Source of the DNA: Escherichia coli
GTDB lineage: Bacteria > Pseudomonadota > Gammaproteobacteria > Enterobacterales > Enterobacteriaceae
Length of the DNA: 64,000 nt
NCBI RefSeq assembly: GCF_009931435.1
Contig: NZ_CP043414.1
Reading direction: 5' to 3' (one strand)
Of this stretch, positions 1,574-48,060 are shown piece after piece. The position numbers and the translations under genes are program-made. Each line of letters opens with the position of its first letter. The first letter of the stretch is position 1. Below the pieces are notes generated by a model. It saw nothing but the letters and a program-made list of their open reading frames with translations, had not been told where the DNA came from and searched no databases.

Positions 1574-2419
1574 TCAGCCACGTCTTGCACGCTGGATGTC
1601 GCGTATCCGCTGTTTTTCTGCGCGCGCCATCAGATACCAGGCGATAAATCCGACAATTCCGACTGCGCCGAGGATTAATGTTGCCAGGGCGTTGATTTCC
1701 GGATTCACCCCCATCCGCACGCTGGAGAAGACCAGCATCGGTAACGTGGTGGCTCCTGGCCCGGAAACAAAGCTGGCAATCACCAGATCGTCGAGCGACA
1801 GAGTAAAAGCCAGTAACCAGCCAGAAATGATCGCGGGCATGATCATCGGTAGCGTAATGACGAAAAACACTTTCAGCGGCGTCGCACCGAGATCCATCGC
1901 TGCTTCTTCAATGGAACGGTCCAGCTCCCGCAGACGCGACGAAATAACGACTGCCACATAAGCCGTACAGAAAGTGACATGCGCCAGCCAGATGGTGAGC
2001 ATGCCTCGCTCCGCAGGCCAGCCGATGGCATGTGCAAGTGCGACGAATAACAACAACAGCGACAAGCCCGTGATGACATCTGGCATCACCAGCGGCGCGG
2101 TGATCATAAAGGCAAAACCATTTGATCCGCGAAACCTGCCAAAGCGCACCAGCACGACCGCCGCAATCGTCCCGAGGATCGCCGCCGCCGTTGCCGCACA
2201 GGCAGCTATTGTCAGGCTTAAACCAACCGCACTCATCATCGCGTCATCGCGCAATAATTCGCCATACCAGCGCGTTGACCAGCCGGCCCACACCGTCACC
2301 AGCTTCGAGCTGTTGAATGAATAGATCACCAGCATCAGCATTGGCGCGTAGAGAAAGGTGAAGCCCAACAGCAAAATCACAATTCGCCAGGGCGAACGAA
2401 CCACCGGTAAATTATTCAT
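1574..2419 (-). CDS. potI: Putrescine ABC transporter permease PotI
   Basis: ORF trimmed to internal start MNNLPVVRSPWRIV (281 aa); multi-TM ABC permease; start overlaps potH stop. Confidence 0.9.
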   Translation of the reverse strand: MNNLPVVRSPWRIVILLLGFTFLYAPMLMLVIYSFNSSKLVTVWAGWSTRWYGELLRDDAMMSAVGLSLTIAACAATAAAILGTIAAVVLVRFGRFRGSNGFAFMITAPLVMPDVITGLSLLLLFVALAHAIGWPAERGMLTIWLAHVTFCTAYVAVVISSRLRELDRSIEEAAMDLGATPLKVFFVITLPMIMPAIISGWLLAFTLSLDDLVIASFVSGPGATTLPMLVFSSVRMGVNPEINALATLILGAVGIVGFIAWYLMARAEKQRIRDIQRARRG

Positions 2420-3369: not shown

Positions 3370-3378
3370 CTTTGCTCC

Positions 3379-4512
3379 TTAAACCGTCAGCACCACACAA
3401 CTGTCCACTTCCCAGCACAAGCGCACTTCATCGCCCCAGGTGGGTAATCCTTTACGATAACGATGGGCATTTTGTAGCTGGGCGCTGATCATCTGCCCGC
3501 TTTTCAGGCGAACGTGATAGACCGAAAGATCGCCGAGATAGGCAATGTGCATCACCTCCCCCACCGCGAAGTTACAACCATTGGCGGGCGGTTCTTCACA
3601 AAGCATGATTTTTTCCGGACGCAGCGCCACATGCACCGGCACGTTATCGACCACCGAAGCATCTACATCAACTTTCAGTGGATGCACCAGCCCCGGCGAA
3701 TAAAGCACCAGACCATCTTCCTGACGCTCTTTGAGTACACCTTCAAAGACGTTTACCGAACCGATAAATTCAGCACTGTAGCGCGTGGTCGGATGCTCGT
3801 AGATCTCTTCCGGCTCGCCAATCTGGACAAATTTCCCACGATTCATAATGGCGATGCGCCCCGCCATGGTCATCGCCTCTTCCTGATCGTGAGTGACCAT
3901 TACGCAGGTCACACCGACGCGCTCCAGAATATCCACCACTTCAAGCTGCATCCGGTCACGCAGCTTTTTATCCAGCGCGCCCATCGGCTCATCGAGCAGT
4001 AATAGTTTCGGGCGCTTGGCAAGGCTTCGGGCCAGCGCCACACGCTGTCGCTGACCGCCGGAAAGCTGGTGCGGTTTGCGTTTGGCGAACTCCTGCATAT
4101 GCACCAGCCCAAGCATCTCATTGACCCGGCTGGCAATTTCCGCTTTCGGTAGTTTGTCCTGTTTCAGGCCAAAAGCGATGTTCTGTTCCACGGTCATATG
4201 CGGAAACAGCGCGTAAGACTGAAACATCATATTGATGGGGCGCAGGTAAGGCGGCACCTGTGACAAATCGACGCCATCGAGCATAATCTGCCCGGCAGAA
4301 GGTTGTTCGAAACCTGCCAGCATACGCAGCAGCGTGGACTTGCCACAGCCGGATGCGCCCAGCAGCGCGAAGATTTCGCCTTTATAGATGGTCAGGCTGA
4401 CATCATCGACCGCATGCTGACCATCGTAAGATTTAGTCAGATTACGGATTTCTAATAGCGGCGTCAGCGCCTTACGGGTTTTCGCCTGGGGGCGAGGGAT
4501 AGCGTCATTCAC
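3379..4512 (-). CDS. potG: Putrescine ABC transporter ATP-binding protein PotG
   Basis: Walker A GASGCGKST, ABC signature LSGGQRQR, Walker B LLLLDEP. Start placed at in-frame GTG (VNDAIPRPQ, 377 aa) rather than the upstream ATG of the 404-aa ORF. Confidence 0.85.
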   Translation of the reverse strand: MNDAIPRPQAKTRKALTPLLEIRNLTKSYDGQHAVDDVSLTIYKGEIFALLGASGCGKSTLLRMLAGFEQPSAGQIMLDGVDLSQVPPYLRPINMMFQSYALFPHMTVEQNIAFGLKQDKLPKAEIASRVNEMLGLVHMQEFAKRKPHQLSGGQRQRVALARSLAKRPKLLLLDEPMGALDKKLRDRMQLEVVDILERVGVTCVMVTHDQEEAMTMAGRIAIMNRGKFVQIGEPEEIYEHPTTRYSAEFIGSVNVFEGVLKERQEDGLVLYSPGLVHPLKVDVDASVVDNVPVHVALRPEKIMLCEEPPANGCNFAVGEVMHIAYLGDLSVYHVRLKSGQMISAQLQNAHRYRKGLPTWGDEVRLCWEVDSCVVLTV

Positions 4513-4606
4513 GGCTGCTCTCCGGCATTGAATGTGTGCAAGCGCACCCTGATGGTGCGAATTGCCGGCGGGTGTGGTGCGCCCGTCCGGCATCTACGGC
4601 TGCGGA

Positions 4607-7595: not shown

Positions 7596-8318
7596 TTAGC
7601 GCGTAGCCCAACCCTGTTTGTGCAAATAATCCAGTATAAATGGGCGGCTTTCTTTAATGATTGTTCGGCGGATATGATCGCTCCAGGTATCCCGGCGATT
7701 ATTGCTGCCACGGGTGAGGTAATATTCCGCCAGTTGTTCGTCATACTGCGCCAGTGCGTCTTTATCCAGCGGTTGATAGCTGTTTTCATGCACCAAAATG
7801 GAAGCCGGTAAACGCGGCTTAAGATCTGGATTATCCGCAGGCCAGCCAAGGCACAGCCCAAACAGCGGCAGAACATGCTGCGGTAATTTCAGCAGTTCCG
7901 TCACCGCTTCAATATTATTGCGCAGGCCGCCGATATATACCCCGCCCAATCCCAGCGATTCCGCTGCGGTTAACGCATTCTGCGCCATCATTGCCGTATC
8001 AACGACACCGAGCAACAGTTGTTCCGCCAGGCCAAGTTGTGCATCCGGACAGATCTGTAAATGGCGGTTAAAGTCGGCACAGAACACCCAAAACTCCGCC
8101 GCTTTCGCTACGTGTTTTTGCCCGCCGGTCAGCGTCACCAGTTCATCACGTAACGCTTTGTCGGTAATGCGAATAATGCTACTGCACTGCAAAAAACTGG
8201 AACTGGACGTCGCACGGGCGCTGTTAATAATCGCCTCACGCTGCGCTTCGGAAATGGGTTCATCAGTGAAATGGCGAATGGAGCGATGGCCACAAATAAG
8301 TTCAATGGTTGGCGTCAT
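7596..8318 (-). CDS. nfsA: Oxygen-insensitive NADPH nitroreductase NfsA
   Basis: 240-aa ORF MTPTIELICGHRSIRHFTDEPISEAQREAIINSARATSSSSFLQ. Confidence 0.9.
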   Translation of the reverse strand: MTPTIELICGHRSIRHFTDEPISEAQREAIINSARATSSSSFLQCSSIIRITDKALRDELVTLTGGQKHVAKAAEFWVFCADFNRHLQICPDAQLGLAEQLLLGVVDTAMMAQNALTAAESLGLGGVYIGGLRNNIEAVTELLKLPQHVLPLFGLCLGWPADNPDLKPRLPASILVHENSYQPLDKDALAQYDEQLAEYYLTRGSNNRRDTWSDHIRRTIIKESRPFILDYLHKQGWATR

Positions 8319-11444: not shown

Positions 11445-11523
11445 GCCACTGCTTTTCTTTGATGTCCCCATTTTGTGGAGCCCATCAACCCCGCCATTTT
11501 GGTTCAAGGTTGGTGGGTTTTTT
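11445..11523 (+). ncRNA. rybB: RybB small RNA (sigma-E-dependent, Hfq-binding regulator of outer-membrane protein mRNAs)
   Basis: gccactgcttttctttgatgtccccattttgtggagcccatcaaccccgccattttggttcaaggttggtgggttttttgtt matches the RybB sequence I recall almost base for base, including the 5' GCCACUGCUUUUCUUU seed and a terminator hairpin plus U-run; lies in the ybjL-rcdA intergenic region. Confidence 0.8.
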
Positions 11524-11542
11524 GTTATCTAAAATTTATCTA

Positions 11543-30112: not shown

Positions 30113-31984
30113 TTATCTACGCATGAATGCGTATTCTGATTGTGGTTGTGCGACGTAATGCCCCGGCCCGACGCATTGCAACGAGACGGCTGCAACCTCT
30201 TCGCCACGCAGATGAATATTGCTGGGAAGATCGTCCGACAGCAGTACACGCTGCGGTCGTTGTCGGGACGGTTCAGCGACCGGAACTGCCGCCAGTAATT
30301 TACGCGTATAAGGATGCTGCGGGTTTTCAAAGACCGCGCGCCGTGGACCAATTTCAACAATTTGTCCGAGATACATCACCGCCACACGATGACTAATCCG
30401 CTCTACCACGGCCATATCGTGGGAGATAAACAGATACGCAATGCCGAAATCACGCTGGAGATCGAGCAACAAGTTGATAATCTGCCCGCGAATAGATACA
30501 TCCAGCGCCGAGACGGCTTCGTCGGCAATGATCACTTTTGGATTCAATGCCAACGCGCGAGCAATGCAGATGCGCTGGCGCTGACCGCCGGAAAACTCAT
30601 GCGGGTAACGCCAGGCATGTTCAGGTAACAGGCCCACGCGCTCCAGCAACCACGCAACGCGTGCAGCCGCTTCTTTACCTGGCAATAAACCGTGTACGCG
30701 CAGCGGTTCGATAATCGAATCACCGATGGTCTGACGTGGGTCCAGCGAAGCGTAAGGGTCCTGAAAAATAAACTGAATATCGCGACGCAATGCCTGAAGT
30801 TTGCCGGGTGACAAAGTATCGATTCGCTGACCGTTAAAGATAATTTCGCCGCCCTGCGATTCGACCAGGCGCAGCAACGCCCGCCCGGTAGTGGATTTAC
30901 CGCTGCCAGACTCACCCACCAGCGATAGCGTTTCGCCAGGCCAGAGATCAAAACTGACTTTCTCAACGGCATGCACTTCCCGCGTCACGCGATTCAACAA
31001 ACCACTGCGCAAAGGGAAACGGGTAACCAGATTACGCACCCGTAAAACAGGTTCGCCATCCACTACCGTCTTCTGCTCGATGGGTGGTTCCTGTTTCACT
31101 GGATGTTCAAGCGATATCAATGGGAAACGTCGGGGATAATCTCTCCCTTTCATCGCACCAAGCTGCGGGACAGCAGCTAACAGCGCACGGGTGTAAGGAT
31201 GTTGTGGTGCATGAAAAATCTGTTTGACGCTACCCGTTTCCACCGCCTCGCCCTGATACATCACCAGTACCCGATCGGCAATCTCTGCCACCACACCCAT
31301 ATCGTGAGTGATAAAGATAACGCCCATCGACATCTCTTTTTGCAATACTTTGATTAATTGCAGGATCTGCGCCTGAATAGTGACATCCAGCGCGGTGGTT
31401 GGCTCATCGGCAATCAGCACCGCCGGGCGGCATGACAGTGCCATCGCAATCATCACTCGCTGGCGCATCCCGCCAGAGAGTTGATGCGGATAACGTGAAA
31501 GAATGGTTTGTGCCTCCGGAATGCGTACCTGATCCAGCATCCGCTTCGCCTCGACCATTGCTTCTTCACGACTGGCGTTTTGATGCAGACGAATTGATTC
31601 GGCAATCTGTTCACCCACAGTAAATACCGGGTTCAGCGATGTCATCGGCTCCTGAAATATCATTGCCATATCCGCACCGCGCACATGGCGCATTTGTGCA
31701 GCGCTCTGCTCGCTAAGTTCAATCACTTCGCGAGTGCGCCGCCGCAACAGCATTTGATCGCACTGCACTAAACCGCCCGCCTGTTCCAACAGGCGCATCA
31801 GTGCCAGCGCAGTCACTGACTTACCAGAGCCGGATTCGCCAACAATTGCCAGCGTCTTACCACGTTGTAGGCTAAAAGAGAGATTGCGGACCGCAGCTAT
31901 TTTCTGCTGGTCCTGCCTAAAGGCAATATTCAGATTTTCAACCGCCAGCACATCACCGGCATCAAGTTCATCACTGTGTGGCAA
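30113..31984 (-). CDS. gsiA: Glutathione import ATP-binding protein GsiA (duplicated ABC ATPase)
   Basis: Two Walker A motifs (GESGSGKS twice) and two LSGG signatures. Start placed at in-frame TTG giving [18 protein letters not shown] (623 aa); overlaps the 3' end of iaaA. Confidence 0.85.
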
Positions 31985-32936
31985 CGGTGTCCCCTTTTTC
32001 ACGGTAGATACCGGTGGTTGGCGTATCGCCTGCGTAGCCCCAGGCGCGATACATTCCTTCGGTGTTAAACGGTAGCGCGACGTTACCTTCATGGTCGATA
32101 GCGATTAAGCCACCGTTACCACCAAGCGCAGGGAGTTTTTCCATTACTACCCGCTCGCAGGCTTCCGCGAGACTTAATCCGCCGTAATCCATTAACGCGG
32201 CGATGTCATATGCCGCCAGCGCGCGGATGAAGACTTCGCCCGTGCCGGTACAAGAAACCGCCACACTGGCGTTATTGGCGTAGCATCCGGCGCCCACTAA
32301 GGGACTATCGCCAACTCGTCCGGGTAATTTATTGGTCATTCCGCCTGTGGACGTGGCTGCCGCCAGATTGCCGTCTAAATCCAACGCCACGGCACCCACG
32401 GTGCCCATTTTCTGTTTTTCATCCAGTGGCGCACCGCTATGGTCGAGAACCGTTGCCCCTTCCTCGCGCGCTGCCAGGAGTTGTTCATAACGCAAAGGCG
32501 TGGAGAAAATCTCCGGCGAGACGCGCTCCATGCCATGAGCAAACGCAAAATTTTCTGCCCCTTCGCCAATCATCATCACATGCGGGCTTTGCTCCATCAC
32601 CAGGCGGGCAGCAAGAACCGGATTACGCAGATGACTCACGCCCGCCACCGCACCGGCTTTCAGGGTGTTACCATCCATCACACAGGCGTCGAGTTCATGC
32701 GTTTCATCTCGCGTAAAGACTGCGCCAATTCCGGCGTTAAACAGTGGACACTCTTCCAGCAGACGCACCGTTTCCGTCACCACATCCAGCGCACTTTCGC
32801 CCGCTTCCAGCATTTTCTGCCCGGTTTCAACAATGGCAGACAACGCCTCAATGTAGCGTAATTCCTGTTGCAGACTCATCTGCGCGCGGCTAATTGCACC
32901 TGCGCCACCATGAATTGCAATGACTGCTTTGCCCAT
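31971..32936 (-). CDS. iaaA: Isoaspartyl peptidase / L-asparaginase IaaA (Ntn hydrolase)
   Basis: 321-aa; [15 protein letters not shown]-terminus and autoproteolytic GTVGAVALD site. Confidence 0.9.
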
Positions 32937-35135: not shown

Positions 35136-35220
35136 AGGCCTGATAAGTTGCGACAAGCGTCGCATCAGGCATTTGCTCCAGACGCCAGATGCGGCGTGAA
35201 CGCCTTATCTGGCCTACGGT
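35136..35220. repeat. REP/BIME elements downstream of moeB
   Basis: gcctgataagttgcgacaagcgtcgcatcaggc and gccagatgcggcgtgaacgccttatctggcc, typical REP palindromes. Confidence 0.6.
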
Positions 35221-46511: not shown

Positions 46512-46546
46512 TTTAGCAATAGCTATATAATATAGCCATTGCTAAA
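46512..46546. promoter_or_regulatory. 35-bp near-perfect palindrome about 95 bp upstream of mntR; candidate operator
   Basis: tttagcaatagctatat-a-atatagccattgctaaa, 17-bp arms with one mismatch, read directly; centre is TATA-rich. Confidence 0.4.
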
Positions 46547-46824: not shown

Positions 46825-48060
46825 ATGGTATTAAGTAACTGTATTCAATGTCAGTCATGCAAATTTATATATAGAGTTAGGGTTGGTATTGGGTTTGATA
46901 AATACCAAAGACATTATATGGACTGTTTTGAGTGTAATATTCCTATTGTTTTTGCTATACGAACAGACCCACCAAATGCTTATCTTGAAGCGGAAGAAAA
47001 CTGCCTAATTGTTGAACATAGTACAGACCACAAGGTTGTTAACTTCCATCCGGGATGTGCTTTTAATAAAGATGAGATACATCAGTCACTGATATTCCCA
47101 TCTATTGAATTGACACAAATGATTCATAAACATATGAGGATGCCGAAAGGACAACGCCTTATAAGTGCCTCTCATCAATTTGATATTCCCAACGCCCCCT
47201 CCAAATGGAATTATTTAAAATCAATAATAAAACTTATTAATGAAGGAAAGAAAGACAAAGCTCAGAATACAGCAAAGCTTTATATGCAATCAAGAAATAA
47301 AGAGTTACCTTTGTATAATGAAGATGATAGCTATTCCTCTACATCTCTAATCTATGAGTTTTTAGATTGGCTTTTCTATCCTCGAGTACATGATATAGCC
47401 GATTCCATTAAAAAAACAATTGATGACCTTAAAGAACAAAATTTGTTGGATGATTTTTACGCTTTCTATAAAGAAAATTTAAAATCCGAAAATGAACAAA
47501 GATACATCAATATAATATCAGATTTCATGGCTCGTAGAGATCATTTCGGGCAGTTAATCTATTACGCAAGAATTAACAACGATGCAATAGACGATAAGAT
47601 AATTAGCTCTAAGAACTTCGATAATGTAAGAAATTATTATGGAGATGCTTATGAAAGTCTGACATCTAACATGACTATTTTAGCATGTATTAATAACATC
47701 GTCAGTGGAAGGGCATTCGATCAGTTCAAGCAAATGACATTGAATAAATACATAAAGGATGTAAATAAAGACAGTAAAACAAACCCATTTAAGGACAACC
47801 CTTTATTTAGCGCATTTTGTGAAGATGATTTAGAGTCAGCAATAAGAAATGGTTCTCATCATGCCTCTATATGGCATGACGGAGAGAGTATTCGATATAG
47901 AAGTGGCGGAACTGGCGCAGAAAGAGAAATAAGCTATACAAAATATATTCACCTTTGTAATAAGCTAACTCTTAAAATCGTAAGTTTGTGGTTAATTGAA
48001 CTTCATATCCAACATATTTACGAAAAAGATGATAATAGCTATGCATGGTTTCATCTTTAA
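46825..48060 (+). CDS. Hypothetical protein, 411 aa, AT-rich cargo gene with N-terminal Cys cluster (possible zinc ribbon); function unknown
   Basis: Long ORF with AAGGA RBS 8 nt upstream of ATG; sampled lines are about 28-37 percent G+C versus about 50 percent in flanking genes; N-terminus CIQCQSC...CFEC; rest rich in K/N/D/E/Y; no family recognised by eye. Confidence 0.6.
   Translation: MVLSNCIQCQSCKFIYRVRVGIGFDKYQRHYMDCFECNIPIVFAIRTDPPNAYLEAEENCLIVEHSTDHKVVNFHPGCAFNKDEIHQSLIFPSIELTQMIHKHMRMPKGQRLISASHQFDIPNAPSKWNYLKSIIKLINEGKKDKAQNTAKLYMQSRNKELPLYNEDDSYSSTSLIYEFLDWLFYPRVHDIADSIKKTIDDLKEQNLLDDFYAFYKENLKSENEQRYINIISDFMARRDHFGQLIYYARINNDAIDDKIISSKNFDNVRNYYGDAYESLTSNMTILACINNIVSGRAFDQFKQMTLNKYIKDVNKDSKTNPFKDNPLFSAFCEDDLESAIRNGSHHASIWHDGESIRYRSGGTGAEREISYTKYIHLCNKLTLKIVSLWLIELHIQHIYEKDDNSYAWFHL

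Follow-up and report, generated by a model that had tools for sequence, protein, structure and literature searches.

Where does translation of gsiA and potG begin, and how far is it coupled to translation of the genes that precede them? The question is raised by a stretch of 64,000 nucleotides of Escherichia coli DNA (the window), in which a caller that takes the longest open reading frame opens both genes with an ATG. According to the original prediction, these frames run upstream into sequence that is not part of the proteins, the starts are a TTG for gsiA, 14 nt inside the 3' end of iaaA, and a GTG for potG, and the genes are tightly coupled across iaaA-gsiABCD and potFGHI. We find that the two codons are very probably ordinary, correctly annotated non-ATG starts in E. 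coli ABC-transporter operons. The claim of coupling fares differently from junction to junction.

The window is a piece of the E. coli chromosome, and its positions 1 to 46544 match a complete E. coli genome with 98% identity. The gene order is rlmC-ybjO-potIHGF ... gsiDCBA-iaaA-moeAB, with both the gsi and the pot operon on the (-) strand (Table 1). We asked how unusual the starts and the overlap are within this region. Among its 46 backbone coding sequences 40 start with ATG, five with GTG and one with TTG, and the annotated start differs from that of the longest open reading frame in 17 of the 46. Neighbouring genes on the same strand overlap in 6 of 25 pairs (by 1, 1, 4, 4, 14 and 17 nt, the last being ybjC/nfsA). 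The gsiA and potG starts and the iaaA/gsiA overlap are no statistical oddity; they represent ordinary bacterial gene organisation. A scan of the whole window against Rfam gave RybB and naRNA4 as the only matches, with no match at the iaaA/gsiA or the potF/potG junction.

Table 1. Coordinates of the iaaA/gsiA and potF/potG start regions, rejected starts and distances between neighbouring genes (negative distances are overlaps; energies of Shine-Dalgarno (SD) duplexes in kcal/mol)
Feature	Position	Strand	Remarks
iaaA CDS, 321 aa	31971..32936	(-)	isoaspartyl peptidase
iaaA codon 314, AAA	31995..31997	(-)	position of the TAA stop in most related genera
iaaA stop TGA	31971..31973	(-)	made of gsiA codons 4-5 (aGT GAt)
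iaaA/gsiA overlap	31971..31984	(-)	direct reading; 14 nt including stop codon, 11 nt of sense codons
gsiA CDS, 623 aa	30113..31984	(-)	glutathione ABC transporter, double ATPase
gsiA Shine-Dalgarno AAGGGG	31991..31996	(-)	6 nt before TTG; within iaaA codons 314-315
gsiA start codon TTG	31982..31984	(-)	best SD duplex, orthologue conservation, TetRP
Rejected gsiA start ATG, longest ORF	32090..32092	(-)	SD -1.5; not conserved; stops in relatives
Rejected gsiA start GTG, 6 codons above TTG	32000..32002	(-)	SD -3.0; GCG in two species
Rejected gsiA start GTG, 11 codons below TTG	31949..31951	(-)	start in 2006 K-12 annotation
potG CDS, 377 aa	3379..4512	(-)	protein starts (M)NDAIPRPQ
potG Shine-Dalgarno GGAGAG	4518..4523	(-)	duplex -6.6; 5 nt before GTG
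potG start codon GTG	4510..4512	(-)	conservation, SD, RefSeq
Rejected potG start ATG, longest ORF	4591..4593	(-)	27 codons above GTG; duplex +1.1, no SD
potF-potG spacer, 94 nt	4513..4606	(-)	stem-loop 4591-4564 (GCCGGaCGGG / CCCGCCGGC)
iaaA/gsiA junction			-14 nt
gsiA/gsiB junction			+19 nt
gsiB/gsiC junction			+17 nt
gsiC/gsiD junction			+2 nt
potF/potG junction			+94 nt
potG/potH spacer	3370..3378	(-)	+9 nt; potH SD AAGGAG across potG stop; upstream 25 nt ggtgctgacggtttaaggagcaaag
potH/potI junction	2416..2419	(-)	-4 nt, ATGA overlap

The start codon of gsiA

On the (-) strand iaaA ends with ...GAA AAA GGG GAC ACC GTT GCC ACA CAG TGA. Read from the TTG inside this end, the gsiA frame runs TTG CCA CAC AGT GAT GAA and encodes (M)PHSDELD. 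It is the +1 frame to that of iaaA and is open upstream. The protein has 623 aa if it begins at the TTG and 659 aa if it begins at ATG 32092, 36 codons above. Of 5426 complete E. coli genomes, 5422 carry a junction segment of 70 nt with an identity of 98.5% or more, and the RefSeq/PGAP annotation of three other E. coli genomes gives identical coordinates, with the overlap of 14 nt and a gsiA of 1872 nt. At the protein level, GsiA of the window is 99.4% identical to RefSeq WP_001354869.1 and 97.8% identical to GsiA of a K-12 derivative, from which it differs in strain-level substitutions only (e.g. D11 for N11). The K-12 gene (b0829, formerly yliA; U00096.3/RefSeq; Nakahigashi et al. 2016, PMC4909307) has the TTG, the 14-nt overlap and the N-terminus MPHSDELD in common with the window.

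Among the four in-frame NTG candidates, the TTG has the best Shine-Dalgarno sequence. The energy of its duplex is -7.8 kcal/mol, compared with -1.5 for ATG 32092 and -3.0 for each of GTG 32002 and GTG 31951, and its spacing of 6 nt lies within the range of 5-9 nt. The motif is conserved in the orthologues, where it reads AAGGGG, AAGGAG or TAAGGGGG.

For the comparison of start codons we used 80 orthologous loci with one genome per species, Salmonella not being among them. In most Enterobacterales loci the position of the TTG is occupied by a start codon, be it a TTG (Escherichia, Citrobacter, Superficieibacter, Pseudocitrobacter), a GTG (Enterobacter, Lelliottia, Phytobacter, Siccibacter) or an ATG (Leclercia, Pluralibacter, Cedecea, Rahnella, Serratia), and the conservation of the protein, PHS[DE]EL, starts directly after it. 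A stop codon interrupts the gsiA frame a few codons above the start in Enterobacter, Lelliottia and several further genera. We also analysed the codon positions of the 30 variable sites that seven Escherichia/Citrobacter sequences contain in the 108 nt above the TTG. Since 25 of these 30 sites are third positions of iaaA, which correspond to second positions of the gsiA frame, the stretch above the TTG evolves as iaaA only.

These results bear directly on the longest frame, which would overlap iaaA by 122 nt. No ATG of the open gsiA frame precedes ATG 32092, and most sequences from E. coli and Citrobacter have it. On the other hand, its duplex is the weakest of the four, E. albertii has ACG in its place, the extension is broken by in-frame stops in Enterobacter, Lelliottia and others, and the distribution of the substitutions leaves no coding constraint on it. 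It is not the RefSeq start either, and we consider a GsiA of 659 aa practically impossible.

A main or secondary start at one of the two GTG codons is only marginally more credible and still very improbable. Both are in-frame NTG codons in the window, and GTG 31951 was the official K-12 start in 2006. However, their duplexes are weak, two other Escherichia species have GCG instead of GTG 32002 (a change that is synonymous in iaaA), and GTG 31951 is replaced by GTA or GTT in two relatives. Moreover, published start-site mapping separates the TTG from the 2006 start. In tetracycline ribosome profiling (TetRP) of K-12, yliA (gsiA) was assigned a new start at the TTG, 33 nt above the 2006 start, with densities in three samples of 46/140/71 at the TTG as opposed to 0/0/3 at GTG 31951 (PMC4909307 Table S2), and this call matches the GenBank record of 2014 (PMC4909307). 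Note that TetRP compared in-frame NUG codons within 60 nt, a range that leaves ATG 32092 outside, and that the signal at the TTG falls inside the iaaA coding sequence, a situation in which, as the authors warn for some genes, the signal may be confounded (PMC4909307).

Initiation of gsiA at the TTG is thus strongly supported by the Shine-Dalgarno sequence, comparative genomics, curated annotation (including RefSeq) and published TetRP; the codon-position analysis agrees, and the original prediction is borne out on this point. We were not able to find N-terminal peptides of GsiA or PotG in searchable published supplements. The TRAINSPOTTER supplement (PMC13245402) lists IaaA only, with a 16-residue N-terminal peptide from K-12.

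We also considered a programmed +1 frameshift at GAA-AAA-GGG-G, which would produce an IaaA-GsiA fusion. Judged from the sequence only, it is very unlikely: a canonical shift site, with a slow or a stop codon in the A site, is lacking, and the relatives have TAA at that codon.

The start codon of potG

The longest potG frame gives 404 aa from ATG 4593, the longer product that the original sequence report of 1993 reportedly deduced. In RefSeq, two other E. coli genomes have a potG of 1134 nt that starts with GTG 94 nt after potF, and the reference E. coli potG (b0855, 377 aa) has the same GTG, Shine-Dalgarno sequence and 94-nt spacer, with no substantive difference from the window. Within the species the spacer is about 98% conserved without indels in seven sequences, and all seven keep ATG 4593. 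Since the E. coli spacer is therefore uninformative about the extension, we compared other genera.

The comparison covered nine sequences from eight genera: E. coli, Salmonella, Cedecea, Buttiauxella, Pantoea, Erwinia, Rahnella and Pectobacterium. At the position of the GTG, seven of the nine have GTG and the other two TTG (six and two of the eight genera, respectively); none has ATG. The motif 'ccggaga' before it is invariant in 9/9 sequences, and above the motif the DNA of different genera no longer aligns. Beyond the start the frame is closed upstream by stops, at codon -9 in Salmonella, at codon -1 in Rahnella and between codons -15 and -24 in the other genera. Some database entries from other genera do call a longer potG; at the start position these have V, and they have nothing in common with the E. 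coli extension.

If potG were translated from ATG 4593, the protein would have 404 aa and start 14 nt after potF, which would make the potF-potG junction a tight one. This ATG opens the longest frame and is conserved in the seven aligned E. coli sequences. Against it, the codon has no Shine-Dalgarno sequence and is located at the foot of a stable stem-loop. Salmonella, Rahnella, Buttiauxella, Pantoea, Cedecea, Erwinia and Pectobacterium either lack the extension or have stops in it, its sequence does not align from one genus to another, with conservation setting in abruptly at 'ccggaga', and the RefSeq start is the GTG. We regard this alternative as extremely improbable.

Initiation at GTG 4512-4510 is strongly supported, as far as can be judged from the Shine-Dalgarno duplex (-6.6), its conservation in eight genera, the stops upstream and the curated RefSeq annotation; the original prediction appears to hold here as well. 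In the literature and in searchable supplements we found no initiation signal for potG and no relevant paper. We also found no terminator-like or promoter-like site in the potF-potG spacer above the expectation from shuffled sequences. As a mechanism we propose that potG would be initiated at this GTG through GGAGAG, 94 nt after the potF stop and hence independently of potF.

For both genes, the longest frames overshoot the real proteins, as had been predicted (659 instead of 623 aa and 404 instead of 377 aa). They would be read-through artefacts of an open frame. Alignment of the orthologues confirms that the start positions are conserved across genera, whereas the upstream ATG codons are lost or separated from the genes by stops. 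Note that the two non-ATG starts are already known: they are the current standard annotation and, for gsiA alone, have been seen by published start-site profiling in K-12, where the TetRP signal lies at the TTG (PMC4909307). Their significance is mainly one of annotation hygiene, as a longest-ORF caller makes GsiA too long by 36 residues and PotG by 27. The window illustrates why start calling needs Shine-Dalgarno and comparative evidence.

Origin of the iaaA/gsiA overlap

Next, we asked how the overlap of 14 nt came about. We were able to locate the end of IaaA in loci that range from Enterobacterales to Burkholderiales, and in nearly all of these the protein ends with ...IYR* or ...IYRE*. 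Seven genera (Enterobacter, Leclercia, Lelliottia, Phytobacter, Superficieibacter, Pseudocitrobacter and Siccibacter) have the junction gaaTAAgg(g/a)g..., followed by 10-11 nt and the gsiA start. Their IaaA ends with ...IY(R/Q)E*, and the stop codon is fused to the Shine-Dalgarno sequence. Altogether, TAA stands at the codon homologous to iaaA codon 314 in at least 12 loci from several Enterobacteriaceae genera, and the relatives that lack the overlap have iaaA/gsiA spacers of +9 to about +70 nt. Escherichia and Citrobacter, on the other hand, have gaaAAAgg(g/a)g... and eight additional IaaA residues, KGDTVATQ, a tail that is confined to these two genera. The junction reads, for example, gaaTAAggagacgccgTTG in Superficieibacter and gaaAAAggggacaccgTTG in E. 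coli.

By parsimony, these data suggest that the overlap is the derived state and that it goes back to a single substitution of TAA by AAA in the Escherichia/Citrobacter lineage. The ancestral junction would have consisted of IaaA...GIYRE-TAA, a spacer of 10-11 nt containing the Shine-Dalgarno sequence, and the gsiA start. With the change to AAA the iaaA stop would have been lost, and the frame would have gained eight more codons up to a TGA inside gsiA. Such an origin by stop loss is one small addition beyond the existing annotation.

Since the typical Salmonella junction is not in the comparison, the loss of the stop can be placed in time only roughly. A record labelled Salmonella Derby (a label that is unverified) does contain the overlap and is Citrobacter-like, with 85% DNA identity. 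A paper on the structure of EcAIII is silent on IaaA residues 314-321.

Loss of an upstream stop codon is a general mechanism by which gene overlaps arise in bacteria, known from comparative studies of such genes. The iaaA/gsiA junction would be a plain example of it, with a single-base change, a short lineage-specific tail and a stop inside the neighbouring gene. The layout from which it probably started is a common one: E. coli has 203 gene pairs with a junction of about 9-12 nt and a Shine-Dalgarno sequence in the spacer (PMC10666635). The putative ancestral layout belongs to this class and is still present in Enterobacter, Leclercia and others, and potG/potH (+9) fits it as well. The window differs from the class in that the iaaA stop is lost and the former spacer is now coding.

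Junction distances and translational coupling

Finally, we examined the original claim of tight coupling along both operons. The short junctions (-14, +2, +9 and -4 nt) speak for it; the intermediate ones (+17 and +19 nt) and the +94 nt between potF and potG speak against it, so that the claim is only partly supported. Every downstream gene is preceded by a Shine-Dalgarno sequence of its own, with duplex energies of -3.8 to -8.4, and independent initiation is therefore possible everywhere. A literature search gave no paper that measures coupling at these junctions.

What is known of other E. coli pairs allows the distances to be graded. In reporter assays with three pairs, reinitiation was reduced by 80-100% at +38 nt, and about 20 nt nearly abolished coupling (PMC10666635). 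Measured in this way, the distances at iaaA/gsiA, gsiC/gsiD and potH/potI are compatible with termination-reinitiation, that at potG/potH is borderline, and those at potF/potG, gsiA/gsiB and gsiB/gsiC exceed the few nt that it calls for. Coupling by termination-reinitiation is accordingly graded as plausible, from sequence, at the first three junctions. At potG/potH it may perhaps occur, while at gsiB/gsiC (+17) and gsiA/gsiB (+19) it would be doubtful. Given the loss of 80-100% at +38 nt, the spacer of 94 nt is too far for termination-reinitiation, and for potF/potG, which lies outside the range with observed coupling (PMC10666635), this mode of coupling can be considered excluded on the ground of distance.

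Known coupled pairs overlap in the ATGA or TGATG manner (Huber et al. 2019, 2023; PMC6728339, PMC10666635), and the overlaps in the window are like them in that both genes lie on the same strand and the downstream start and its Shine-Dalgarno sequence lie inside the upstream gene. While potH/potI is a textbook ATGA pair like those studied there (PMC6728339, PMC10666635), the iaaA/gsiA overlap has 14 nt instead of 4 or 1. According to the mechanism that we propose, gsiA would be initiated at TTG 31984-31982 through AAGGGG, both elements lying within the last iaaA codons, and ribosomes that finish iaaA would cross the gsiA start and terminate 11 nt past its first base. To reinitiate at the TTG, such a ribosome would need to move backward. 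Translation of iaaA may nevertheless assist the initiation of gsiA, either by termination-reinitiation or by unfolding the mRNA. Weak start codons may help to hold the output of the ATPases modest.

We also folded positions 31925-32064 and found a stem of 10 bp (32016-32007 with 31963-31954) that encloses the gsiA Shine-Dalgarno sequence and the TTG (z = -1.5). As an element that couples or masks gsiA this stem was rejected, since z is only -1.5 and its 3' arm is not conserved in Citrobacter.

Does the overlap then have a function? With the starts as annotated, it could be a neutral by-product of the stop mutation, gsiA being initiated de novo at its own Shine-Dalgarno sequence. We regard this as a serious possibility that falls somewhat short of being probable. 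Only Escherichia and Citrobacter have the overlap, and relatives manage with spacers of +9 to about +70 nt; the gsiA Shine-Dalgarno sequence is strong in all relatives, and the stem around the E. coli start has no conserved counterpart in Citrobacter. On the other hand, the E. coli pairs that were assayed do show termination-reinitiation when they overlap or lie very close together (PMC10666635), and TTG is a weak initiator, for which help from upstream ribosomes is plausible. The evidence presented here fits a neutral overlap as well as a role in coupling.

A bolder reading, which we consider rather unlikely, takes the overlap as a young, lineage-specific rewiring and sees in it, together with the non-ATG starts of the two ATPase genes, the result of selection for a fixed ratio of ATPase output to that of the upstream gene, and not neutral accidents. 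If the rewiring did take place, every ribosome that translates iaaA runs over the gsiA ribosome-binding site, and IaaA has gained a tail of eight residues. A spacer of +10 and an overlap of -14 with the same Shine-Dalgarno sequence form a natural pair of junctions that is usable for studying the effects of overlap geometry on coupling.

Start codons of potG and gsiA

The potG start at window position 4510-4512 is non-ATG, either GTG or TTG, in all of the 8 genera that we compared (the window and the orthologous potG loci L089-L095, taken from genera other than Escherichia), with PotG protein identities of about 87-93% over the same genera. Unlike potG, the orthologues of gsiA interchange TTG, GTG and ATG freely at their start. 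The start of potG may, on this comparison, be kept weak by selection.

The N-terminal part of GsiA is a fast-evolving stretch. In codons 6-41 of gsiA (window 31862-31970), half of the sites (54/108) are variable among seven Escherichia and Citrobacter sequences, and 29 of these 54 variable sites fall on codon position 1 or 2. GsiA of the window shares only about 93% identity with its counterpart in another Escherichia species, as compared to about 97% for IaaA. Note that the iaaA/gsiA overlap singled out in the original prediction is shorter than that of ybjC and nfsA, which amounts to 17 nt (window ~8302-8318, minus strand, as annotated by RefSeq in the matching genome).

Stem-loop and RNA features

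The spacer between potF and potG contains a stem-loop that is kept in E. coli, where only the bulge and a neighbouring base vary; it is not present in the potF-potG spacers of the other genera. The stem-loop is not followed by a U-tract. Its putative roles might be the stabilisation of the potF message or the attenuation of read-through. Apart from the two RNAs listed in the table, no Rfam matches were found within the window.

Features located in the window
Feature	Position	Strand	Remarks
Stem-loop GCCGGaCGGG-N9-CCCGCCGGC	4564-4591	-	inside the 94-nt potF-potG spacer
RybB sRNA	11448-11526	+	Rfam match, 104.8 bits
naRNA4, REP-derived nucleoid-associated RNA	35137-35214	-	downstream of moeB; Rfam, 68 bits
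411-aa ORF	46825-48060	+	beyond the backbone break

A doubtful Salmonella label

In the record GCA_016412015.1, labelled Salmonella enterica Derby, an aadA-like nucleotidyltransferase gene lies between moeA and iaaA (1523-2311 of locus L100). The iaaA-gsiA DNA of this record is 85% identical to Citrobacter in a megablast search, whose settings yielded no alignment of it with either E. coli or E. albertii. Because of both results, the Salmonella label may be wrong.

Departure from the E. coli backbone

The usual E. coli backbone ends at position 46544, between mntR, which lies just before it, and mntS. This junction has a 100% match in one complete E. coli genome only (NZ_CP106924.1); at the same spot, other strains carry different cargo, namely an AIPR family protein, DUF6338 or a serine acetyltransferase. 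The 411-aa ORF has no match in Pfam or PADLOC. From ~48,980 to the end of the window there is a myovirus-type prophage, which is about 95% identical to the Escherichia phages ESSI2_ev129, ev015 and ev040.
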